In this document: positions 992 through 14,214 of the stretch, in pieces
How positions within the stretch are numbered: position 1 is the stretch's first letter
Layout of the letters: every line of letters begins with the position of its first letter
Assembly: GCA_964582765.1 (NCBI GenBank)
Contig: CAZOSW010000004.1
Coordinates: forward strand, 1 to 54,676
Length of the DNA stretch: 54,676 nucleotides
From: an uncultured Planctomycetales bacterium
GTDB taxonomy: Bacteria; Omnitrophota; Gorgyraeia; Gygaellales; Profunditerraquicolaceae
Direction of reading: 5' to 3'
Position numbers and translations under genes: made by a program
The notes under the pieces: model-generated
Told to the model about the DNA's origin: nothing
Databases searched by the model: none
The model's input: the letters and a program-made list of their open reading frames with translations, nothing else

Positions 992-1038
992 ATAACAATA
1001 ATTAAGTCTAAGCGTTCTGGGGATTCGTGAGTATCTCC

Positions 1039-1098
1039 GGAGGATTTATAAGATGGTCGGGCCGCCATCTGATTAAATGATCAGGTGACGGATTTTTT
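1039..1098 (+). promoter_or_regulatory. Candidate translation-coupled attenuator: SD + mini-ORF MVGPPSD + intrinsic terminator
   Basis: GGAGG at 1039-1043, then ATG at 1053 and TAA at 1074-1076. The stem 1062-1073 / 1080-1091 is followed by TTTTTT at 1093-1098. The core GATGGTCGGGCCGCCATCT (1052-1070) recurs exactly at 7697-7715. Confidence 0.5.
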
Positions 1099-1178: not shown

Positions 1179-1457
1179 ATGAAAAAAGTTATTAAAAAGT
1201 GGGGATGGTATAAAGTTTTGGCAAAAGGGAATGGGTTTAAGGTAAAGGTATTATATCTTAAGCCTTTCGCCAAGACAAGCTTACAAAGGCATAAGTTTAG
1301 AAGCGAGACATGGGTGTTTCTTGATAGCCAAGAAGTAAAGATAGTAGGAAGGCATAAATGGCATCGTTTAAGTAACTCCAGTAACAAGGGGTTAAAGCTA
1401 GTAGAGGTGCAAATAGGGATATGCCAGGAAAGAGATATAGAAAGACAAAAGGAATAG
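1179..1457 (+). CDS. Small stand-alone cupin protein (phosphomannose isomerase type II C-terminal-like)
   Basis: WGWYKVL..GFKVKVLYLKP..SLQRHKFRSETWV resembles the cupin beta-barrel core of type II PMI / GDP-mannose pyrophosphorylase C-termini. Confidence 0.55.
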   Translation: MKKVIKKWGWYKVLAKGNGFKVKVLYLKPFAKTSLQRHKFRSETWVFLDSQEVKIVGRHKWHRLSNSSNKGLKLVEVQIGICQERDIERQKE

Positions 1458-1472
1458 CCGGAGATAAATACT

Positions 1473-3752
1473 ATGAGCAGTAATGTTAAGAAGATAGCTT
1501 TTATAGGTAATTATCTCCCCAGGAGATGCGGGATTGCCACCTTTACCTCCGATCTTTGTGAGGCGTTTGCGGCCCTGGATCCGTCCGTTCAATTATTTGT
1601 TATTCCTGTTACAGATACCAAGGAAGGTTATGATTATCCCGAACGCGTGCGTTTTGAGATTAAAGAGCAAGATATATCTACATATAAAGCTGCGGCAGAT
1701 TTCCTCAATCTTAACAATATTGATGTTGTCTGCCTTCAGCATGAATTCGGCATTTTTGGCGGAGACGCCGGCAGCTACATATTGACGTTATTACGGCAAT
1801 TGAAGATGCCGATCGTAATGACTTTGCATACGGTATTACAGCATCCATCCGCACGTCAGAAGCGCGTAATGGATGAATTGCTTGAGCTCTCTGATCACGT
1901 GGTTGTAATGACGCAGAAGGCTATAGATATTCTTCAGGCTGTGCATAAAATAAGCAGTGCAAAGATAGCTTTGATTCCGCATGGAATACCTGATGTTTCA
2001 TTTATCGACCCTAATTTCTATAAAGATCAGTATGGAGTTGAAGGCAAGACTGCGCTTTTGACCTTTGGATTGCTTGCTCCGCATAAAGGGATAGAGGTTG
2101 TTCTGCGCGCTCTTCCTAAGGTTTTAAAAGAATACCCAAACGCGGTATATATCGTTGTCGGAGCCACACATCCTAGTCTGTTAAGGTATGAGGGTGAGAA
2201 ATACAGGCTTTTCTTGCAACGCCTTTGTGATGAGTTAGGGATTTCCAGAAATGTTATTTTTCATAACCGGTTTGTATCTCTGGAAGAACTTAAAGAGTTA
2301 CTTGTACTTGCGGATATTTATATTACTCCATATCTTCAAGAGGCGCAGATAGTTTCCGGAACGTTAGCTTATTCTTTCGGCGTAGGAAACGCGGTCATTT
2401 CGACTCCATATTGGCATGCTGCGGAATTACTTAGCGATGGCAAGGGCCTGCTCGTGCCGTTTAACGATTCGCCAGCCATGGAGCAGGCGATCTTAAGGCT
2501 TATTGGCAATGAAAACGAACGTAACGCGATGCGAAAGAATGCTTATCTTTTTGGCCGTGAAATGATCTGGGGTAAGGTGATATTGAAATACGCGTCTATC
2601 TTCGAAGAATCCAGATTGAAACGCACTCCAATAATGCAAAACAAAATAACAATGCATTCTCTTGAACAAGGGGTTCCTGTATTGCCTGAGATTAAGCTCG
2701 ACCATCTCGTGAGGATGACTGATTCTATCGGAATTTTCCAGCACGCGATGTTTAATGTTCCTAATTTTTCCGAAGGATATTGCACAGACGATAATACGCG
2801 GGCGCTTATTCTGGCCGTATTGCTTGAGAATTTAGGTACGGTGAATCTTCTTGCAATTGATGATCTTGCTAGCCGTTATCTCGGATTTATCAGGCATGCC
2901 TGGGATCCTTCTATCGGACGTTTTAGGAATTTTCTGACCTTTCAGCGGAATTGGATGAAAGAAATACCGAGTGAAGATTCCCATGGAAGAGCGTTATGGG
3001 CGATCGGTATTTGTATCGGGCAATCCAAAAATGAAGGATTCGTGCATATGTCAATTGAGCTTTTTGAAAAGGCTCTTACTTGTTCATCGGCATTTACTTC
3101 TCCGCGCGCCTGGGCTTTCATTTTACTCGGCATGCATGAATACCTACAGCGTTTTCGTGGAGATAGGCTGATTCGTAATTGCCTGCAGGCATTGGCTAGG
3201 CGGCTTTACGATCTTTACAGAGCAAATTTCAGCACAGAGTGGCTGTGGTTTGAATCATCTTTGACATATTGCGGCGCTAAATTGCCTCACGCGCTTTTAT
3301 CAAGCGGATATGACCTTAATAATGAAGAAATGATAAAAGCCGGAATAGAGTCTTTAAACTGGCTTGTAAAAATACAGACTTCAACGCGTGGTCATTTCCA
3401 GCCGGTTGGCTCGGATAACGCGTATCATCGCGGTGGGATAAAACCTGCTTTTGATCAACAGCCGGTAGAAGCCTATTCTACTATTTCAGCTTGCCTTGAG
3501 GCTTATCGCGTCACAAAAGATAAGGCCTGGTATAATGAGGCGGCAAAAGTTTTTCAATGGTTCCTCGGTGGTAATGATTTGGGAATTCCCGTATATGATC
3601 CGGTAACTGGAGGATGTTGCGACGGGCTGCATATTGATAGAGTGAATCGCAATCAAGGCGCTGAATCTACACTCTCATTTCTTCTGTCATTAGCTGAAAT
3701 GACGCGTATGGGAAATATTCTGGAAAGCCTTAAGGAGCCATTAGAGGAATGA
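1473..3752 (+). CDS. Group-1 (GT4) glycosyltransferase fused to a ~370 aa C-terminal helical domain of unknown function
   Basis: The N-terminal ~390 aa carry GT-B group-1 patterns (KIAFIGNYLPRRCGIATF, LLTFGLLAPHKGIEV, SGTLAYSFGVGNAVISTPYWHAAELL). The stop overlaps the next start (ATGA at 3749). Confidence 0.8.
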   Translation: MSSNVKKIAFIGNYLPRRCGIATFTSDLCEAFAALDPSVQLFVIPVTDTKEGYDYPERVRFEIKEQDISTYKAAADFLNLNNIDVVCLQHEFGIFGGDAGSYILTLLRQLKMPIVMTLHTVLQHPSARQKRVMDELLELSDHVVVMTQKAIDILQAVHKISSAKIALIPHGIPDVSFIDPNFYKDQYGVEGKTALLTFGLLAPHKGIEVVLRALPKVLKEYPNAVYIVVGATHPSLLRYEGEKYRLFLQRLCDELGISRNVIFHNRFVSLEELKELLVLADIYITPYLQEAQIVSGTLAYSFGVGNAVISTPYWHAAELLSDGKGLLVPFNDSPAMEQAILRLIGNENERNAMRKNAYLFGREMIWGKVILKYASIFEESRLKRTPIMQNKITMHSLEQGVPVLPEIKLDHLVRMTDSIGIFQHAMFNVPNFSEGYCTDDNTRALILAVLLENLGTVNLLAIDDLASRYLGFIRHAWDPSIGRFRNFLTFQRNWMKEIPSEDSHGRALWAIGICIGQSKNEGFVHMSIELFEKALTCSSAFTSPRAWAFILLGMHEYLQRFRGDRLIRNCLQALARRLYDLYRANFSTEWLWFESSLTYCGAKLPHALLSSGYDLNNEEMIKAGIESLNWLVKIQTSTRGHFQPVGSDNAYHRGGIKPAFDQQPVEAYSTISACLEAYRVTKDKAWYNEAAKVFQWFLGGNDLGIPVYDPVTGGCCDGLHIDRVNRNQGAESTLSFLLSLAEMTRMGNILESLKEPLEE

Positions 3753-5191
3753 TAAAAAATACTGGTATAGCTATTACTCCTGATGACAAGCACGTCATTA
3801 TTCGGCCCTATGTTCCTCATGATCAATCACGGGTTCACAGAATTGCATTACGCGTTATGGCGCTAGAGGAATCTGCCGCTGAAAAAGAGCTCAAGAAAAT
3901 CAGGCGCGATTTTTCGGCGCGGCATCATAATCTTGACAAAATCCTTAAACATCAATTTGAAGCTGTACGCACATACTTGCCTTCCGATCTTAACCCTTCT
4001 GAAACACGCAAACTTCTCATAGGAGCGTGTTTTGTCGGCGAGCGTACATTTGAATCAGCAGCGCTTTTTAATCCTTCTATTGTCGCGCATCCGGATCAGT
4101 CCGGGATTTCTTCTGGCTCCTTACGCGTAATTATTTCTTTGCGCGCAACAAGCGAGGGGCACATATCCACATTAACATTTCGTTCCGCTATCCTAGATAA
4201 AGATGGCTTAATATCGATTGATAAAGTTTCTAATTTAGCTTGTACCGCTGAACCGAAAGCCAACGCGCTTTACGATAAGGTATGTTTCATCGGGAAACTC
4301 TATGAAATGGGGCTAGAGAATGATTGTGCAAAATACATTATAGGCCCGTTACCGGCTGAGTTTACTATTGCGCAGCTGGAGGATAGAATTAATGCCTATA
4401 CTATTGATCATGATCCGATAATTCAAACAGATAAGCTTACCTGTGAAAAGATTCTGTGGCTTGCGCGATGTAATTACGAAGTTACTTTTGATTCGCAATT
4501 TACGCTTTCAGAGCGCGTGCTATTTCCGCTTTCTCCCAGCGAACAGAACGGTATGGAGGACGCGCGTTTTGTTCTTTTTAAAGACGATGACGGAAGCAAA
4601 AAATACTATGCTACTTATACGGCGTATGATGGGAAGGTAATCCTTCCGCAGATAATGGAGACAGAAGATTTTATTCATTTTAAAATGATTACCTTAAACG
4701 GCAAGGCAGCGGTCAACAAAGGAATGGCTTTGTTTCCGCGTAAGATTGGCGGCCGCTATGCGATGATCTCTCGGAATGATAACGAGAGGCTCTTTCTCAT
4801 GTATTCCGACAATATCCATTTCTGGCATGAAGCCGTTCCGATTATGGAGCCTTTGTATTCCTGGGAGTTTGTGCAGATCGGAAATTGCGGCTCTCCCATT
4901 GAGACTGAGCGCGGGTGGCTTCTTTTAACCCATGGCGTTGGTCCGTTGCGTCAATACACGATTGGCGCGGCCCTGCTTGATCGCGATGATCCTTCACGCG
5001 TACTCGGTCGATTGAGCAAACCGCTTATTCATTGGAAGGCTAAGAGCCGTTGTGGGTATGTTCCAAATGTCGTCTATTCATGCGGCGCCTTGGTTTACGG
5101 CGATATGCTTATCATTCCCTATGCGTTATCCGATCAACAGACGACTATCGCGCTAGTATCGTTACGCGAGATCTTAGACAGGTTGTCTTAG
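3749..5191 (+). CDS. GH130-family glycosidase/phosphorylase (PH1107-related) with an N-terminal extension
   Basis: NGMEDARFVLF, YYATYTAYDG and GSPIETERGWLLLTHGVG are typical of the GH130 beta-propeller family. Confidence 0.7.
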   Translation: MIKNTGIAITPDDKHVIIRPYVPHDQSRVHRIALRVMALEESAAEKELKKIRRDFSARHHNLDKILKHQFEAVRTYLPSDLNPSETRKLLIGACFVGERTFESAALFNPSIVAHPDQSGISSGSLRVIISLRATSEGHISTLTFRSAILDKDGLISIDKVSNLACTAEPKANALYDKVCFIGKLYEMGLENDCAKYIIGPLPAEFTIAQLEDRINAYTIDHDPIIQTDKLTCEKILWLARCNYEVTFDSQFTLSERVLFPLSPSEQNGMEDARFVLFKDDDGSKKYYATYTAYDGKVILPQIMETEDFIHFKMITLNGKAAVNKGMALFPRKIGGRYAMISRNDNERLFLMYSDNIHFWHEAVPIMEPLYSWEFVQIGNCGSPIETERGWLLLTHGVGPLRQYTIGAALLDRDDPSRVLGRLSKPLIHWKAKSRCGYVPNVVYSCGALVYGDMLIIPYALSDQQTTIALVSLREILDRLS

Positions 5192-7183: not shown

Positions 7184-7506
7184 TGGTTAAGCCGGTTAAT
7201 ATTGTTGATATAGCCACGATTATCCGAAGCAAAAACGCCAAACCTTTCTTATTTACCATGGATATTTTCTTTGATAATTTAGGGCACTATGAAAAAGCGG
7301 TAAATTCCGGGGTTATAAATAAGAAACTGATTGCAAAGATGTATCATTTAGAAGATGAAAACAAGGCTGAAATTTACAATTTTGCTCAAGCTTGGGCAAT
7401 TAAGATTACTATTCCCAGAGCTGTGGCTTCGGGTGGAATAGGAGATACTGATATTTATGGCGCTCAGCAGCATGCCCCTTTATATTCAATAAAAATTCCT
7501 ATCTGA
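7183..7506 (+). CDS. DUF4387-like small protein (AtuA partner)
   Basis: RSKNAKPFLFTMDIFF...YGAQQHAPL is characteristic of DUF4387. The start overlaps the upstream stop (TAATG). Confidence 0.65.
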   Translation: MVKPVNIVDIATIIRSKNAKPFLFTMDIFFDNLGHYEKAVNSGVINKKLIAKMYHLEDENKAEIYNFAQAWAIKITIPRAVASGGIGDTDIYGAQQHAPLYSIKIPI

Positions 7507-7599
7507 AAAATTAGTAGGTGTCTTATAGGGTATAGTGAAATAGGATATCTGCAAAAAGGTTATTGATTTCTCAAGATTTTGATAAATTCTCGATTATGC

Positions 7600-7628
7600 T
7601 TGACAATGAGATAAAACCTATTTATTAT
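7600..7628 (+). promoter_or_regulatory. Sigma70-like promoter (TTGACA, 17 nt, TATTAT)
   Basis: TTGACA at 7600-7605 and TATTAT at 7623-7628. Confidence 0.5.
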
Positions 7629-7684
7629 AAGAAAAGAGCGAAGTGAAATAAAATATTCTTGGGTTCAGAAATAATTTTATTTCT

Positions 7685-7754
7685 GAAGGTTGTATTGATG
7701 GTCGGGCCGCCATCTACGAAGGTAGAAGGCGGCTTCTGTTTTTTTAACTCTTAG
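7685..7754 (+). promoter_or_regulatory. Candidate translation-coupled attenuator: mini-ORF MVGPPSTKVEGGFCFFNS spanning an intrinsic terminator
   Basis: SD-like GAAGG at 7685-7689, then ATG at 7698 and TAG at 7752-7754. The terminator is GCCGCC-AU-CUAC-GAAG-GUAG-AA-GGCGGC (7706-7733) followed by UUCUGUUUUUUU, with a U-run at 7739-7745. Confidence 0.55.
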
Positions 7755-7770
7755 AGCGAAAGGAGATCCT

Positions 7771-8769
7771 ATGGATTGGCAGAATGTTCCTAACCCAGAT
7801 GAGATAATTGAGGCAGGTAGGAAGAAATTCGTGGATTTCTCGAAGTGGATTCCTATCGCAGTAATTGTTTTGTTCATCCTGGCTGGTTTGCGGGGTTTAA
7901 TTTATTCGATCGGCCCGGATGAGGTGGGTGTTATTCAGAGGTTTGGTAAGTTCATCGGCTTAAGTTCTCCCGGGTTGCATGCAAAAATACCATTTAGTAT
8001 AGATAAGGTAACGCCGATTAAGGTAGAGAAGGTTTTTAAGGAGGAATACGGGTTTAAGACCATGGTGCCGGGAGTAAGGTCAAAATTCTCTTCGGGTAAT
8101 TATCAGGATGAATCTTTGATGCTTACCGGAGACTTGAATATTCTTGATGTGCGCTGGATAGTGCAGTTTAAAATTAAAGATCCGGTAAAGCTGCTTTTCG
8201 CTACGCGCCACCCCGAGGACAATATACACGATATTTCCGAAGTAGTTATGCGGCGTTTCGTCGGGGATTATTCAGTGGATGAAGTCCTTACTACCAAAAG
8301 GGAAGAGATAGATGATTTGGCGCAGCAGGAGATACAGCGTATACTTGATATGTATGATGTCGGGGTACATATAGTTACGGTGAAACTATTGGATGTTAAC
8401 CCTCCTGAAGCGGTAAAGTCCGCATTTAACGAAGTAAACGAGGCCAAGCAAGAAAAAGAGAAGATGATTAACCAGGCCTGGGAGGCTTATAATAAAGTTA
8501 TTCCCAAGGCCAGAGGGACGGCAGAGAAGACTATCCGTGAATCAGAGGGTTATGCTACGGATAAAATAAACCGCGCCAAGGGCGAATCAGCAAGATTTCT
8601 TGCTACTTTAGAGGAGTATAAAAAAGCTCCGGATATAACCAAAAAGAGGCTCTATTTAGAAACCTTAACACAGGTGCTTCCTAATGCAAAAGAGAAATAC
8701 ATAATTGATTCGCAGCAGAGATCGATTCTGCCTCTTTTGGATATCAATAAAAAAGGAGGGCAGCAGTAA
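7771..8769 (+). CDS. hflK: FtsH protease modulator HflK (SPFH/band-7)
   Basis: N-terminal TM segment followed by an SPFH domain (GPDEVGVIQRFGKF, PGLHAKIPF). It is followed by the hflC partner. AGGAG SD. Confidence 0.9.
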   Translation: MDWQNVPNPDEIIEAGRKKFVDFSKWIPIAVIVLFILAGLRGLIYSIGPDEVGVIQRFGKFIGLSSPGLHAKIPFSIDKVTPIKVEKVFKEEYGFKTMVPGVRSKFSSGNYQDESLMLTGDLNILDVRWIVQFKIKDPVKLLFATRHPEDNIHDISEVVMRRFVGDYSVDEVLTTKREEIDDLAQQEIQRILDMYDVGVHIVTVKLLDVNPPEAVKSAFNEVNEAKQEKEKMINQAWEAYNKVIPKARGTAEKTIRESEGYATDKINRAKGESARFLATLEEYKKAPDITKKRLYLETLTQVLPNAKEKYIIDSQQRSILPLLDINKKGGQQ

Positions 8770-9728
8770 TGAAAGGATTACGTTTAATTATTATAATTTT
8801 TACGATATTATTCGCTATTCTAATTTTATCTTTTGTCATTGGTGCGGTGTATGTAATTGAAGAAGGAAAACAAGTGGTTATTACGCAATTCGGCAAGCCC
8901 GTGGGTAATCCGATTACCTCAGCCGGTATGCATTTCAAGCAGCCATTAATTCAGGAAGCACACTATTTTGAAAAAAGGCTCTTGGATTGGGACGGAGATC
9001 CGAATCAGATACCTACCAAAGATAAGAAATATATCTGGGTTGATACTACTGCCCGCTGGAAGATTATCGATGCCTTAAAATTCCTGCAGTCTGTAGGCAA
9101 TGAAATGAGCGCTCAAGGCAGGCTCGATGATATCATAAATTCCGCAACCAGGGATATAATTACCAGCCATCTTTTAGTTGAAGCGGTGAGGGATTCTAAC
9201 CGTATCCTGGAGTCAAGGGCAGAAGGCGAGGATATGATTGTTACGGATGAGGCGCTGGAGCGCATCGAAGTAGGCAGGAAGATGCTGGAGAGCGCCATTC
9301 TAGAAAAGGCAAAGGTTCTTGCTCCCCAGTACGGCATTGATATTATTGATGTGCGCATCAAACGCGTAAATTACGTAGAAGATGTGCGTAACAAAGTTTA
9401 TGATCGTATGATTGCCGAAAGAAAGCGCGCTGCGGAGAAATATCGTTCCGAAGGCCAGGGGAAATCCGCTGAGATAGAGGGGCAGGTAGCCAAAGAATTA
9501 AAGGCTATCACTTCGGAGGCTTACCGTCAGGCACAGATTATTACCGGTAAGGCGGACGGCGAGGCAATCAATATATATGCTGGTGCATACAGCCAGAATC
9601 CCGATTTTTATTCCTTCATGAAGACGTTAGAAAGCTATGGAGATACCATCGACGCAAAATCTACGGTGATTTTGACAACCGACAGCGACTATTACAAATA
9701 CCTCAAGTCCCTGGAGGCTATGAAATAA
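8769..9728 (+). CDS. hflC: FtsH protease modulator HflC (SPFH/band-7)
   Basis: The start overlaps the hflK stop by 1 nt (TAATG). SPFH domain (VITQFGKPVG, AGMHFKQPLIQ). Confidence 0.9.
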   Translation: MKGLRLIIIIFTILFAILILSFVIGAVYVIEEGKQVVITQFGKPVGNPITSAGMHFKQPLIQEAHYFEKRLLDWDGDPNQIPTKDKKYIWVDTTARWKIIDALKFLQSVGNEMSAQGRLDDIINSATRDIITSHLLVEAVRDSNRILESRAEGEDMIVTDEALERIEVGRKMLESAILEKAKVLAPQYGIDIIDVRIKRVNYVEDVRNKVYDRMIAERKRAAEKYRSEGQGKSAEIEGQVAKELKAITSEAYRQAQIITGKADGEAINIYAGAYSQNPDFYSFMKTLESYGDTIDAKSTVILTTDSDYYKYLKSLEAMK

Positions 9729-9815
9729 AATATTAGATTAAGAAGGATTAAGTGATAGCTTTGGTTTGTTGGGTTTATAGCTATATCCTTTCTTTTCAAA
9801 TAATATTAGAGTTTA

Positions 9816-9847
9816 ACGGCTATGATTGCTGTTTGGATCATAGCCGT
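9816..9847 (+). terminator. Strong 11-bp perfect hairpin downstream of hflC (no U-tract)
   Basis: ACGGCTATGAT - 10 nt loop - ATCATAGCCGT. Confidence 0.4.
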
Positions 9848-10152
9848 ATTACTTACTGCTGTTCTAGAGGCTTAGAGGATCGTATTTATGGCCCCCATAT
9901 CGAAAGCTTTTACGCCTTGAAATTATTTAAAACGTTTTTTAAGTATATCCTTAGTGATGACGCCCGAAAGATAAAGAAGTTATAAAACGTTTTATTTTTT
10001 TAAAATAAAGCGTTATAATCAAATTAGGAATGTTTATAATAATAGAAGTTATTTAAAAAACTCATACATGAATAAGAAAATATCTTTTCCTCTCATGATC
10101 ATAAGTTATCATACTAAACATGGGTATCTAAATAGAGAAAGGATGTAAAATT

Positions 10153-11181
10153 ATGAACAGTTATCTTTTTTCGGGTATTTTAATGGTTTCTAGTTTTACT
10201 GCCGGGTGGATACTTTATTTTATTGTTTCGCTTTTACTTAAACGGCGGAATGGGTTTTTCTCTAAAGGGCTTAATGTCGATTTAAGGGTTTTAAAAAGTC
10301 CGTTACGATTCCTATTGCCTATTTTGTGTGTTTCGGGGATTATTCCTTTATTAAGAGTGCCGAGAAATGAGCGTTTATTTTTAGGCGACTTTATTCACAT
10401 TTTGCTTATTGCTTTGTTTGGTTGGGTTGGGGTAAAGATTGTTTACATCTTACGCGATGCTCTCCTAAGCCGTTATGATATTAATACTCGGGATAATGTG
10501 CATGCCCGTAGCATGCATACACAAATGCGCGTGATCACAAATATTATGGTTGTTGTTATAGCCTTGTTGACTATTTCCATTATATTGATGAGTTTTTCAC
10601 AGGTCAGGCATATCGGGGTAAGCCTATTGGCTTCGGCAGGAATTTTGGGAATAGTCATAGGTTTTGCTGCGCAAAAAACATTAGGGAATTTTATTGCCGG
10701 TATTCAGATAGCCTTTGCTCAGCCAATTCGGCTGGATGATGTGGTTATTATTGAAGGTGAATGGGGGTGGATTGAGGAAATTACCCTTACTTTTGTAGTT
10801 GTGCGTATCTGGGACCTAAGGCGCCTGGTTGTACCGATATCATATTTTCTCGAAAAACCATTTCAGAATTGGACGCGGACTTCGGCAGATTTGCTGGGGA
10901 CTGTTTTTATATATACCGATTACACCATATCCGTCAAAGATGTCCGTAATGAATTAACGCGTATCCTGGAAAATAGCTCAAAGTGGGATAAGAAGGTCAA
11001 TGTACTGCAAGTTACCAATGCAACCGACAAAACAGTTGAACTACGGGCGTTGATGAGCGCAGGGGATTCTCCCACCATGTGGGACTTGCGTTGTGAGGTC
11101 AGGGAAAAGCTCCTAGGGTTTTTACAACAACAATTTCCGGAAAGTTTGCCGCGGACTCGCATTGAAATGAATAAAAAGTAA
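10153..11181 (+). CDS. Mechanosensitive ion channel family protein (MscS-like)
   Basis: TM segments followed by GNFIAGIQIAFAQPIRLDDVVIIEGEWGWIEEITLTFVVVRIWDLRRLVVP, the MscS pore-helix/beta-domain signature. Confidence 0.85.
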   Translation: MNSYLFSGILMVSSFTAGWILYFIVSLLLKRRNGFFSKGLNVDLRVLKSPLRFLLPILCVSGIIPLLRVPRNERLFLGDFIHILLIALFGWVGVKIVYILRDALLSRYDINTRDNVHARSMHTQMRVITNIMVVVIALLTISIILMSFSQVRHIGVSLLASAGILGIVIGFAAQKTLGNFIAGIQIAFAQPIRLDDVVIIEGEWGWIEEITLTFVVVRIWDLRRLVVPISYFLEKPFQNWTRTSADLLGTVFIYTDYTISVKDVRNELTRILENSSKWDKKVNVLQVTNATDKTVELRALMSAGDSPTMWDLRCEVREKLLGFLQQQFPESLPRTRIEMNKK

Positions 11182-11238
11182 TTGAGTTAATATGGTTGCG
11201 CTAGGCCGGGTGCAATCTGGTGCTGCGCTAAAGGCCTA

Positions 11239-11260
11239 AGGGTTCGAATTTATTAACCCT
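11239..11260 (+). terminator. Hairpin after the MscS gene
   Basis: AGGGTT - 10 nt loop - AACCCT, preceded by further GC-rich pairing (TAGGCC/GGCCTA). Confidence 0.3.
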
Positions 11261-11321
11261 ATCGAAACTTATAAATAAATATAAAACTTAATAAATAATA
11301 CCGAACCAAATTTTTATTATT

Positions 11322-11729
11322 ATGAATAAAATATTTTTTATGCCTATTGCTTCTATAGTTTTACTTATTTTTTTACTGGGAGGGTGCACTTATATTACCC
11401 ATTATGGACAGATAAGCTTACTCAAAAAGTTTGAATCTAATCAGTGCGAAATCGATAGCTATCTAAAAAGGCAGCAAGAGTTTTTCTATAAATTAATAGG
11501 TGATGTCAAAAATAATCGTTTAAAAAAAGGGATTGCAAAAAAAGATGTTTTATCTTTATATGGTAAGCCGATTTTTTGCAAAGAGGTTAAAGATAGCCTT
11601 GAGATTACGGAAAGATGTCTTTACCGGCCTGCGGTAGAATATTTTAATACCGATAGGATATACCTTAATTTCGATAAAGATCGTAATTTATATTCCTGGG
11701 AATTTATTCCGGCGCCCTTAAAACCTTGA
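11322..11729 (+). CDS. Lipoprotein of unknown function
   Basis: Signal peptide with lipobox LLGGC. I recognised no other domain. Confidence 0.6.
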   Translation: MNKIFFMPIASIVLLIFLLGGCTYITHYGQISLLKKFESNQCEIDSYLKRQQEFFYKLIGDVKNNRLKKGIAKKDVLSLYGKPIFCKEVKDSLEITERCLYRPAVEYFNTDRIYLNFDKDRNLYSWEFIPAPLKP

Positions 11730-11760
11730 TCTTCGTTTGACCTATATAAGGAGGTATTCT

Positions 11761-14214
11761 ATGAACATAGAACAGGCAAAACAAATGTCAATAGAAGAGT
11801 TATTTAATAAACTTTCTTCGCGCAGGACAGGCCTTTCTTCTGAAGAAGCCAAGAAGAAACTCTCGGAGCACGGCCCGAATGAAATAACCGAGAAGAAAAT
11901 CAGCCCAATCTTAAAATTTTTAAGTTATTTCTGGGGGCCGATTCCCTGGATGATAGAAGCCGCAGCGGTTCTTTCTGCCCTTATTCGGCATTGGGAAGAT
12001 TTTGGGGTTATTTTCGTTATGTTATTGATAAATGCCGCGGTAGGATTTTGGCAGGAGCATAAGGCGGATAATGCCATCGAATTATTAAAGAAGAGGTTGG
12101 CGCTTAAGGCGCGCGTATTACGCGATGGAAAGTGGGGCGAGTTGCCGGCGCGTGATTTAGTGCCGGGCGATGTAATACGCATACGCCTTGGCGATATTAT
12201 TCCGGCTGATATTAAGCTATCTGAAGGAGAGTTTCTTTTGGTAGATCAATCTGTATTAACCGGAGAATCGCTGCCCGTTGAAAAGCATCTTTTTGATATC
12301 GGCTATTCGGGTTCAATCGTTAAGCAGGGGGAGATGGATGCTGTAGTAGTTGGTACCGGATTAAATACTTATTTCGGTAAAACTGCCAGTCTTGTTGCCG
12401 GGGCTAAAACCTGCAGCCACTTTCAGAAAGCGGTAATTAAAATAGGGGATTATCTCATCGTGACCGCGATAGTTTTAGTCGCGGTTATCTTTTTAGTCTC
12501 GCTCTTCCGCCATGAGAATTTTTTTGAGATCCTTCAGTTTGCGCTTATTCTGGTTGTGGCCTCTATTCCGGTAGCAATGCCTGCCGTATTGACGGTGACA
12601 ATGGCAGTGGGTGCTTCTGTGCTTGCCAAAAAAGAAGCTATTGTAAGTAAATTAGTGGCTATAGAAGAGATGGCAGGAGTAGATATTTTATGTTCGGATA
12701 AGACAGGCACTATCACGAAAAATGAGTTAAGTATTAAAGAGCTTAGGCCTTTGGAGGGATTTAAGGATGTCGATATGCTGCTCTGGGGTAGATTAGCTTC
12801 CCGAGGAGAAGATAAAGACCCCATAGACGATACCGTTATTGCCAAGGCTCAATCGATAAGTGAAGTTACGCAAAATTTCGGTAAGTATCAGGTAATTTCT
12901 TTTAAACCGTTTGACCCGGTTGCAAAACGTACCGAATGCAGTGTGGAAGCAAGCGGAGGCAAAAAATTTAAGGTAACCAAAGGCGCGCCGCAAGTTATTC
13001 TTTCCCTCGTAGCCAATAAAGATTTGATTTCTTCTAGAATCGACGGAATTGTCAATGATTTTGCAGCTAAAGGTTACCGCGCACTCGGTATTGCTAAAAC
13101 AGATGATTCGGGACGTTGGCAATACGCAGGACTTTTTGCGATTTATGACCCGCCGCGCGAAGATTCTGCGGATACTATAAAAATAGCCAGATCAATGGGT
13201 TTAAATGTAAAAATGGTAACCGGGGACCATATCGCTGTGGCCAAGGAGATTGCAAAAGAAGTGGGGCTGGGAGAAAATATTCAGCCAGCTTCCAGTTTTC
13301 TGGATAAACCTGACAAAGAGGCAGAGAAGATTATCGAGGGTGCGGATGGTTTTGCCCAGGTTTTTCCGGAGCATAAGTATAAAATAGTAGAAGAATTACA
13401 GGCGAAAAACCATATTGTCGGAATGACCGGTGATGGCGTTAATGATGCGCCGGCGTTAAAGAAAGCAGACGCAGGGATTGCTGTTGCAGGCGCTACTGAT
13501 GCGGCAAAGTCTGCGGCATCCATTGTCCTTACTAAACCCGGCCTTTCGGTTATAATCGATGCGATTAAGGAGAGCCGTAAGATATTCAAGCGCATGAACA
13601 GCTATACAATTTATCGTGTTGCCGAGACAACCAGGGTTCTAATATTTATGACTCTGGCGATCCTGATTTTTAATTTCTATCCAGTCACCGCCATTATGAT
13701 CGTTATCTTAGCACTGCTTAATGATATACCCATTATGATGATTGCCTACGATAACACAAAGATTTATCCGAATCCGGTAAGTTGGAATATGCGCAGGGTT
13801 TTAACTCTTGCCACTGCCTTGGGAGTGGCGGGGGTGTTCGCGAGTTTCTTGTTATTTTGGATTGGTGAACAAATATTTCATCTTGACCGTCAAATAATCC
13901 AAACGCTTATTTTTTTAAAATTAGCGGTGGCCGGCCATATGACCATTTATTTGGCTAGGACAGGAGAGGATCCTTTTTGGCGTAAGCCTTATCCTGCCCT
14001 TGCCTTAATATTGACATGTGAAATAACCCAGATTGCTGCGACATTATTTGCGGTATATGGGGTATTTATGAAGCCGATAGGCTGGAGATTGGCTCTTTTC
14101 GTATGGGGGTATGCCTTTATTTTCTTTGTTTTAAATGATTTCATAAAAATTCGTGTTGATAAGACAATGGATCATTTTGGTATAAGATTTCGCCGAGGCA
14201 TACAGGCAAGTTAA
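11761..14214 (+). CDS. P-type ATPase, plasma-membrane H+-ATPase-like (P3 type)
   Basis: CSDKTGTITKN phosphorylation motif, MVTGDH and GDGVNDAPALKKADAGIAV. The start was chosen at the ATG 6 nt after AGGAGG (11749-11754) rather than the TTG at 11737. Confidence 0.9.
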   Translation: MNIEQAKQMSIEELFNKLSSRRTGLSSEEAKKKLSEHGPNEITEKKISPILKFLSYFWGPIPWMIEAAAVLSALIRHWEDFGVIFVMLLINAAVGFWQEHKADNAIELLKKRLALKARVLRDGKWGELPARDLVPGDVIRIRLGDIIPADIKLSEGEFLLVDQSVLTGESLPVEKHLFDIGYSGSIVKQGEMDAVVVGTGLNTYFGKTASLVAGAKTCSHFQKAVIKIGDYLIVTAIVLVAVIFLVSLFRHENFFEILQFALILVVASIPVAMPAVLTVTMAVGASVLAKKEAIVSKLVAIEEMAGVDILCSDKTGTITKNELSIKELRPLEGFKDVDMLLWGRLASRGEDKDPIDDTVIAKAQSISEVTQNFGKYQVISFKPFDPVAKRTECSVEASGGKKFKVTKGAPQVILSLVANKDLISSRIDGIVNDFAAKGYRALGIAKTDDSGRWQYAGLFAIYDPPREDSADTIKIARSMGLNVKMVTGDHIAVAKEIAKEVGLGENIQPASSFLDKPDKEAEKIIEGADGFAQVFPEHKYKIVEELQAKNHIVGMTGDGVNDAPALKKADAGIAVAGATDAAKSAASIVLTKPGLSVIIDAIKESRKIFKRMNSYTIYRVAETTRVLIFMTLAILIFNFYPVTAIMIVILALLNDIPIMMIAYDNTKIYPNPVSWNMRRVLTLATALGVAGVFASFLLFWIGEQIFHLDRQIIQTLIFLKLAVAGHMTIYLARTGEDPFWRKPYPALALILTCEITQIAATLFAVYGVFMKPIGWRLALFVWGYAFIFFVLNDFIKIRVDKTMDHFGIRFRRGIQAS

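Follow-up and report, generated by a model that had tools for sequence, protein, structure and literature searches.

A putative nhaA-I-family cation riboswitch with an intrinsic terminator precedes hflKC in Omnitrophota

The leader of the hflK-hflC operon was analysed in contig CAZOSW010000004.1 (assembly GCA_964582765.1) of an uncultured Omnitrophota bacterium. Positions 1-54,676 of this contig constitute the window, the whole stretch of DNA considered here, and all coordinates refer to it. The region 7600-7770 had originally been predicted to be a promoter-to-terminator unit placed directly upstream of hflKC and controlled by a short translated open reading frame (ORF) beginning MVGPPS. The unit itself is present and its layout is conserved in relatives; here it is proposed, with a probability of about 0.9, that it is a monovalent-cation riboswitch of the nhaA-I family (RF03057) acting through the terminator, the identity of the ligand standing outside this figure.

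An Rfam scan of the whole window at gathering thresholds gave exactly two matches, both to RF03057 nhaA-I on the + strand and both spanning the full length of the model (positions 1-55 of 55). The match upstream of hflK, 7661-7715, scored 53.7 bits against a gathering score of 37, with E = 3e-10 in a local scan. The two matches fall on exactly the two 'MVGPPS' loci of the window, which gives the element its RNA family identity. In a permissive scan of 7560-7800, other families appeared only as noise (E > 5), with no DUF1646/Na+-I match even at E <= 10 and no ribosomal leader. The conserved core, comprising GGGU, a covarying helix P1, the AGGU junction and the helix P2 closing the CGGGCC loop, is complete in the hflK copy, which also lies in a cis-regulatory 5' untranslated region (UTR), with its expression platform overlapping the aptamer. 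The perfect 9-bp stem between TTCAGAAAT (7664-7672) and ATTTCTGAA (7679-7687), correctly recognized as a hairpin in the original prediction, is P1 of the aptamer, and the adjoining GAAGG, which had been taken for a Shine-Dalgarno (SD)-like ribosome site, contains the conserved J1/2 junction AGGUU of the family. Likewise, ATG GTC GGG CCG CCA TCT matches the P2 stem-loop read as protein, the Rfam consensus reading cGaUGGUCGGGCCGCCAuCg where ATG GTC GGG CCG CCA TC aligns.

The other parts of the leader (Table 1) were found where they had been predicted. The promoter matches 11 of 12 consensus positions and was the top-scoring site of the first 12 kb, in a scan whose total of promoter-like sites (31) was not above that of shuffled sequences (30.6). 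Transcription is predicted to start at ~7635, ~26 nt ahead of the aptamer. The promoter is kept at the equivalent position in relatives as GCTTGACAA, followed after 16-17 nt by a -10 box; the -35 block, (C)TTGACA(A), with a -10-like box 16-17 nt on, is conserved in most hflK-linked relatives, in which 13-35 nt separate the end of the -10 box from GGGU. In the window (7585-7607) and in L005, L006, L009, L017, L018 and L021, an extended conserved block, CGATTnnGCTTGACAA, reaches past the -35 hexamer on its upstream side; it could serve as an UP-like element or as a binding site for a protein acting in addition to the riboswitch. In the terminator, the stem pairs GCCGCC (7706-7711) with GGCGGC (7728-7733), and seven T residues follow at 7739-7745. 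The 7705-7734 hairpin was missed by a simple terminator scan, probably owing to an internal A/A mismatch, and was recovered by minimum free energy (MFE) folding. Between the U-run and the hflK ATG there are 25 nt including the SD, and the aptamer ends 55 nt before this ATG. A separate hflK promoter 3' of the terminator was considered and rejected, as the 25-nt gap holds the SD and no promoter-like site. Upstream, the leader is preceded by a DUF4387 gene ending at 7506.

Table 1. Coordinates of the leader elements, the operon genes and the second riboswitch copy in the window
Feature	Position	Strand	Details
sigma-70-type promoter	7600-7628	+	TTGACA 7600-7605, 17-nt spacer, TATTAT 7623-7628
nhaA-I aptamer	7661-7715	+	GGGU 7661-7664; P1 7665-7672/7679-7686; AGGUU 7687-7691; P2 GAUGGU 7697-7702/GCCAUC 7709-7714; loop CGGGCC 7703-7708
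upstream ORF (uORF) of the original prediction	7698-7754	+	ATG 7698, product MVGPPSTKVEGGFCFFNS, stop TAG 7752-7754; judged non-coding
intrinsic terminator (expression platform)	7705-7745	+	hairpin GGCCGCCAUCUAC-GAAG-GUAGAAGGCGGCU 7705-7734, then UUCUGUUUUUUU to 7745
ribosome-binding site and hflK	7760-8769	+	AAGGAG 7760-7765, ATG 7771
hflC	8769-9728	+	319 amino acids (aa); TIGR01932 HflC equivalog, 264.5 bits, cut-off 134.4; Band_7 domain
second nhaA-I riboswitch	1013-1098	+	aptamer 1013-1070; terminator hairpin ~1062-1091; T-run 1093-1098

In secondary-structure predictions, the isolated aptamer folds into P1 and P2, and the MFE structure of the full leader has the terminator in place of P2. 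The terminator hairpin reaches -21.0 kcal/mol against -6.1 kcal/mol for P2, and the whole leader -32.5 kcal/mol with the terminator (MFE) against -24.3 kcal/mol with P2 enforced. The 5' arm of the terminator includes the last loop bases and the whole P2 3' strand, and because this strand is used by both, P2 and the terminator are mutually exclusive. In the proposed switch, a transcript starting near 7635 would expose the aptamer (7661-7715) first. With the cognate cation bound, P2 (7697-7714) and the CGGGCC loop would be held together with the GGGU/AGG core, which would occupy the GCCGCCAUC strand, block the terminator (7705-7745) and let the polymerase read into hflK and hflC (ON). With the ion absent, the more stable terminator would take over the P2 3' half, and transcription would end at the U-run, at 7745, after ~110 nt; a product of this length, unless termination is overridden, had been part of the original prediction and is supported as a prediction. 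We infer the ON direction and the independence from ribosomes of the hflKC switch by analogy with the Na+-II riboswitch of Desulfobulbus propionicus, for which single-round in vitro transcription gave Na+-dependent antitermination and for which the mutants AGG->AAA (M2) and loop (M3) gave no response (PMC9646797).

The comparative set consisted of 80 loci around HflK relatives, taken from GTDB species representatives. Aptamers over the Rfam gathering score were found ~50-90 nt upstream of hflK in 13 of the 80 (L004, L005, L006, L007, L009, L013, L015, L016, L017, L018, L019, L021 and L027), all of them Omnitrophota with an HflK 69-92% identical to that of the window, and the promoter-aptamer-terminator-hflK layout is common to these 13 species genomes. 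In each, a hairpin extends from the loop GCC through the P2 3' strand and is followed by a T-run; the overlap of P2 with the terminator and the T-run are present in 18/18 Omnitrophota copies, with covarying terminator stems. The intergenic alignment contains the conserved islands -35 (CTTGACA), GGGUUC, CUGAAGG, an invariant 19-mer, the T-run, the SD and the ATG, between which the terminator stems are variable yet complementary. For the covariation analysis, the 18 Omnitrophota aptamers were combined with four published constructs (22 sequences): 94.8% of the cells are paired, compensatory changes occur at 9 of 13 pairs (38 cells), including 6 of 7 pairs in P1, and none of 500 shuffles reached any of the observed measures, while slid registers drop to 32-65% paired. 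P2 of L015 carries a compensatory change of G-C to A-U.

Outside this group, no aptamer was found in the more distant lineages (other Omnitrophota, Cloacimonadota, Aerophobetes and others, with HflK <= 68% identical), L024-L043 having been searched with Rfam, which gave an aptamer only in L027 (69%), and L044-L083 with a motif regular expression only. In several Omnitrophota loci lacking the aptamer, hflK lies directly behind another gene. In L012 (2880-2990; HflK 75% identical), P1, AGG, the P2 stem and the terminator are kept, the CGGGCC loop is replaced by CTTATCC and the score is below the Rfam threshold; this element is either a decayed aptamer or an aptamer of changed specificity.

These alignments also bear on the original idea of a translated MVGPPS leader, in which a ribosome stalled at Pro-Pro would mask the terminator and hflKC would report the status of translation or EF-P, an explanation regarded here as highly improbable. 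As a string of codons, the frame opened by ATG 7698 is present, its first six codons being the aptamer P2 and the remainder crossing the terminator in the window. In favour of this idea, Pro-Pro is a motif known for stalling, nearly all Omnitrophota copies have an AUG with AGG 5-12 nt upstream, and the sole wobble change (L013, GTC->GTT) is synonymous. However, AGG-N8-AUGG is the Rfam consensus of nhaA-I itself, the SD-like spacing being the J1/2 linker (consensus 8 nt), and the AUG is buried in P2 once the aptamer has folded. Over the 13 hflK-linked orthologues, 51 of 52 cells at the four-fold degenerate wobble positions of Val-Gly-Pro-Pro carry the base of the window, whereas in the neighbouring hflK of the same genomes, four-fold sites whose residue is identical keep the base in 28-67% (mean 43%). 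A frozen wobble next to variable hflK sites is the opposite of peptide-level selection, under which synonymous variation would be tolerated. In the codon identity to 1053-1070, which had been read as constraint on both peptide and RNA or as a recent duplication, the constraint on the RNA stands, and neither the constraint on the peptide nor the duplication does, the flanks being different.

The length of the ORF is not conserved. From the P2 AUG it extends over 7, 7, 8, 9, 16, 16, 17, 18, 18, 18, 18, 19, 21, 25, 27 or 73 codons, and in L018 it continues in frame into hflK (> 100 codons), with stop positions ranging from within the terminator to within hflK. Past the aptamer, the recurring residues are only those forced by the terminator. 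The compensatory P2 change of L015 alters codon 6 ('Ser'), and the replaced loop of L012 gives MVLSAIL*, with the helices persisting. The four published constructs have CTG, CAG, TTG or TTA in place of ATG (PMC9646797 supplement), and a terminator-type member of the family switches in vitro with polymerase and Na+ only, without ribosomes (PMC9646797). The uORF is therefore judged non-coding, and nothing points to a gene. A check of hflK upstream regions in relatives for an MVGPP-type uORF, which had been suggested, recovers the motif as P2 with neither ORF length nor stop conserved, and a translation-sensing leader linked to HflKC was not borne out.

A different alternative is that the ~110-nt terminated transcript is a trans-acting small RNA whose resemblance to an aptamer is secondary, or that the element is a decaying relic that regulates nothing. 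Terminated riboswitch transcripts are able to act in trans in other bacteria, and from the folding energies the short terminated RNA is the predicted default product; decay does occur, as the destroyed loop of L012 indicates, and the copy at 1013-1098 is without GGGU. Against this, the site immediately 5' of hflK, with 25 nt and the SD between terminator and start, is kept in 13 species, and the invariant nucleotides of the ligand core together with the compensatory changes of P1 argue for a working cis aptamer; nor did any complementarity to a target come up, although no search aimed at it was made. This alternative is very unlikely.

Which cation would be sensed is less clear. The nhaA-I RNAs are known as Li+-activated ON riboswitches (Li+-I), with typical members in Proteobacteria, located mostly upstream of nhaA and probably acting on the ribosome-binding site; rare Na+-responsive variants with an intrinsic terminator were given the name Na+-II (PMC9646797; White et al. 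2022, Sci Rep), these being known only from Deltaproteobacteria, upstream of genes of unknown function (PMC9646797). Na+-II RNA binds Na+ selectively, with a Kd of about 1 mM. At position 54, the D. propionicus RNA has a C in place of the U of most nhaA-I RNAs, and its C54U mutant (M4) responds to Li+, Na+ and NH4+ (PMC9646797). Comparison of the wild-type and M4 templates places position 54 immediately 5' of the CGGGCC loop, where both window copies and 18/18 Omnitrophota copies have U.

We lean towards Na+, or a broad Na+/Li+/NH4+ response amounting in cells to Na+ or salt sensing, over selective Li+ because the terminator platform has been validated only for Na+-II, and because of the P1-closing pair, the M4 response and the osmotic-looking regulon. 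That the same riboswitch is selective for Li+, like Li+-I, with HflKC induced in a lithium-toxicity response, is rather unlikely, although several observations are in its favour. Both window copies and 17 of 18 Omnitrophota copies carry GGUCGGGCCGCC, with U at the equivalent of position 54 (L013 deviates with GGUUGGGCCGCC, in which the same U is kept and the first loop C is changed to U), and scores on the nhaA-I model reach 53.7 bits. U54, the Li+-I state, is the one specificity determinant that experiments have identified, and three natural U54 RNAs responded to Li+, which was preferred over Na+ in the two tested against other cations (PMC9646797). On the other hand, U54 in a terminator-type backbone gave the broad Li+/Na+/NH4+ response (PMC9646797), and the P1-closing pair of the Omnitrophota copies is U-A, C-G or U-G, as in Na+-II (C-G), whereas the Rfam consensus and the Li+-I examples have G-C. 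The gene context comprises MscS, HflKC and a glycosyltransferase, without nhaA, and Na+ sensing was suspected by White et al. for osmotic-type associations (PMC9646797). Ligands other than these are distinctly unlikely. On the Na+/salt reading, the associations suggest that HflKC is part of an ionic/osmotic-stress regulon together with MscS channels and the glycosyltransferase operon.

Some points weigh against the riboswitch interpretation and its ligand. Ligand binding, the transcription start and the termination of the hflKC leader RNA are predictions, and read-through from the DUF4387 gene is a possible extra source of transcripts. No nhaA or other gene for a monovalent-cation transporter follows either copy, the downstream genes being hflK and hflC in one case and those for a cupin, a GT4 glycosyltransferase and a GH130 protein in the other, and hflKC has no named place in the published association tables. 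The copy at 1013-1070, which has CGUU where GGGU is conserved, is barely over the Rfam threshold (38.9 bits against 37) and may be impaired. With respect to the ligand, position 54 is U, of the Li+-I type, whereas the single Na+-II RNA that has been validated has C, which makes the call uncertain, and overall similarity does not discriminate, being 0.66 to Na+-II and 0.58-0.67 to Li+-I RNAs. The 5' half of the aptamer is slightly nearer to Na+-II (0.68 against 0.54-0.60), which may reflect AT content only.

The second copy has a terminator of -15.2 kcal/mol and a promoter-like site at 964-991, with TTGTGA, a 16-nt spacer and TG-TATAAT. Exactly two occurrences of the 19-mer GATGGTCGGGCCGCCATCT, at 1052 and 7697, are present in the window, against 0.02 expected by chance, and the ORF at the 1052 locus is MVGPPSD* only. 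A recent duplication behind the identity of the two loci was rejected: the 19-nt core alone is common to them, and P1, linker and terminator differ. The operon behind this copy (1179-5191) was assigned by Pfam to a cupin, a GT4 glycosyltransferase and a GH130 protein; it encodes a 92-aa cupin resembling the C-terminal part of mannose-6-phosphate isomerase, a 759-aa GT4 protein whose C-terminal half is unassigned and a GH130 phosphorylase-like protein of 480 aa, and it may be a salt-induced pathway for a glycoside or a compatible solute.

The genes behind the hflK copy were assigned as follows. The 332-aa product of hflK (7771-8769), with a Band_7/SPFH domain, matches the TIGR01933 HflK equivalog with 286 bits (cut-off 159.4), and the start of hflC overlaps the stop of hflK at 8769, which places both in one operon. 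The nearest HflK homologues (75-92% identity) are all from Candidatus Omnitrophota metagenome-assembled genomes and are annotated as HflK, and identical proteins, in the same gene order, were found on three metagenome contigs. Between hflC and the gene for an MscS-like channel, a 77-aa gene (9752-9985) is called on the identical metagenome contigs (L001, 4982-5215), and it had no Pfam match. The MscS-like channel (10153-11181) is followed by a 135-aa ORF without a family match, and the region 10153-14214 also encodes an 825-aa P-type ATPase that scores 1032 bits on TIGR01647, the equivalog of plasma-membrane proton-efflux type IIIA ATPases, which is unusual for a bacterium. The Rfam scan of the window placed no riboswitch ahead of the MscS-like channel, the 135-aa ORF or the ATPase.

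In relatives, additional aptamer and terminator copies were found ahead of MscS genes (L006, 1631-2801; L021, 6283-6990). In L014 (929-3987), one aptamer heads a series consisting of a small transmembrane ORF, MscS, a Bax-inhibitor-like BaxI_1 gene and hflKC. YccA, the Bax-inhibitor-type protein of E. coli, interacts with FtsH-HflKC.

A pattern scan of metagenomes with AGGTN{3,16}GGTCGGGCCGCC was aimed at the frequency of AUG and the gene associations across the family. Most of its 120 matches were chance occurrences in GC-rich coding DNA, and no family-wide statistics were obtained. A structural filter retained five loci, of which L158 is likely a chance match, leaving L085, L102, L129 and L153; L197, an apparent real aptamer by eye, was missed by the filter. 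The few real matches have ATG, GTG or TTG at the start-codon position. Two lie on AT-rich contigs, each with an ATG-type aptamer and a terminator: in L102 (- strand, ~770-900) they are upstream of a small zinc-ribbon/transmembrane protein (MKCPKC...), and in L129 (40-320) the first downstream ORFs are small membrane proteins, with an MKCPKC-type zinc-ribbon ORF ~1.3 kb on. In L153, which also has a terminator, GUG replaces AUG in P2 (G.U pair).

A Pro-Pro stalling leader for an FtsH modulator is replaced here by an annotated, testable element, and the arrangement suggests that HflKC/FtsH membrane proteostasis belongs to the ionic/osmotic stress response of uncultivated Omnitrophota. With respect to the literature searched, three aspects are new: the host phylum, the family having been reported so far only from Proteobacteria including Deltaproteobacteria; a consistent hflKC target in 13 species-level genomes; and the natural pairing of a Li+-type U54 with a terminator platform, which has been validated so far only for Na+-II. 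Neither PMC9646797 nor the papers on Na+-I and on the discovery of the motif mention HflK, HflC or SPFH, and no link between a riboswitch and hflK was found in the literature searched, in which un-itemised table categories could hide earlier sightings. The element had been called undescribed, which holds for its association with hflKC and not for the element itself, a known RNA family; the result is a modest extension of this family to a new target and phylum, not a new mechanism.

It is tentatively suggested that the Omnitrophota RNAs form a functionally distinct nhaA-I subclass, with U54, a pyrimidine-purine P1-closing pair and a terminator, a natural counterpart of M4, which would define a salt/ionic-stress regulon of HflKC, MscS and the GT4/GH130 glycoside operon, the last possibly for a compatible solute. 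If this is so, HflKC-FtsH membrane quality control would be directly under intracellular Na+ (or another monovalent cation) via an RNA sensor, a link for which no description was found in the literature searched. The hflKC leader RNAs are also useful cases for the tuning of Li+/Na+ selectivity by one nucleotide and the P1 base. For genome scans, it is relevant that nhaA-I aptamers read as SD-N8-AUG GUC GGG CCG CCA and are prone to be mistaken repeatedly for MVGPP mini-ORFs.

Among known systems, attenuators of the trpL/hisL type and proline-rich arrest peptides likewise combine a short ORF over alternative hairpins with an intrinsic terminator upstream of an operon; in the hflKC leader, by contrast, the ORF length is not conserved, there is no peptide selection and the sensor is the RNA fold. 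The Na+-I riboswitch (DUF1646 motif) is, by its description, alike in its two-hairpin consensus and its ON regulation by a monovalent cation, often via terminators, but the hflKC leader gave no DUF1646 match, and DUF1646 differs in the lower P1 and the P2 loop. Closer are the Li+-I RNAs, with which the hflKC leader shares a full-length match over the RF03057 gathering score, the P2 core including U54 and the 5' UTR site. The associations listed for them are otsA (16), glycosyl transferase (5), trkA (4), mscS (3), an un-itemised 'other' (52) and 'hypothetical' (171), and environmental Li+-I-like aptamers with terminators, upstream of nhaD and osmotic-stress genes, had already been noted (PMC9646797); mscS and glycosyl transferase are also seen behind other Omnitrophota and window copies. 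Unlike Li+-I, the hflKC leader would control a terminator before hflKC and not the ribosome-binding site of nhaA, and its P1-closing pair is U-A, not the consensus G-C. The Na+-II riboswitch of D. propionicus has, like the hflKC leader, GGGU, an AU-rich P1 (CAGAAA/UUUCUG), AGGUU, a short linker and P2 with the CGGGCC loop, a terminator whose 5' arm is the P2 3' half followed by a U-run, a predicted ON logic, downstream genes other than nhaA and a pyrimidine-purine P1-closing pair. The hflKC leader differs from it in having U, not C, at position 54, the sole nucleotide shown to shift specificity, in its host, which belongs to Omnitrophota and not to Deltaproteobacteria, and in its target, which is hflKC and not a hypothetical gene.

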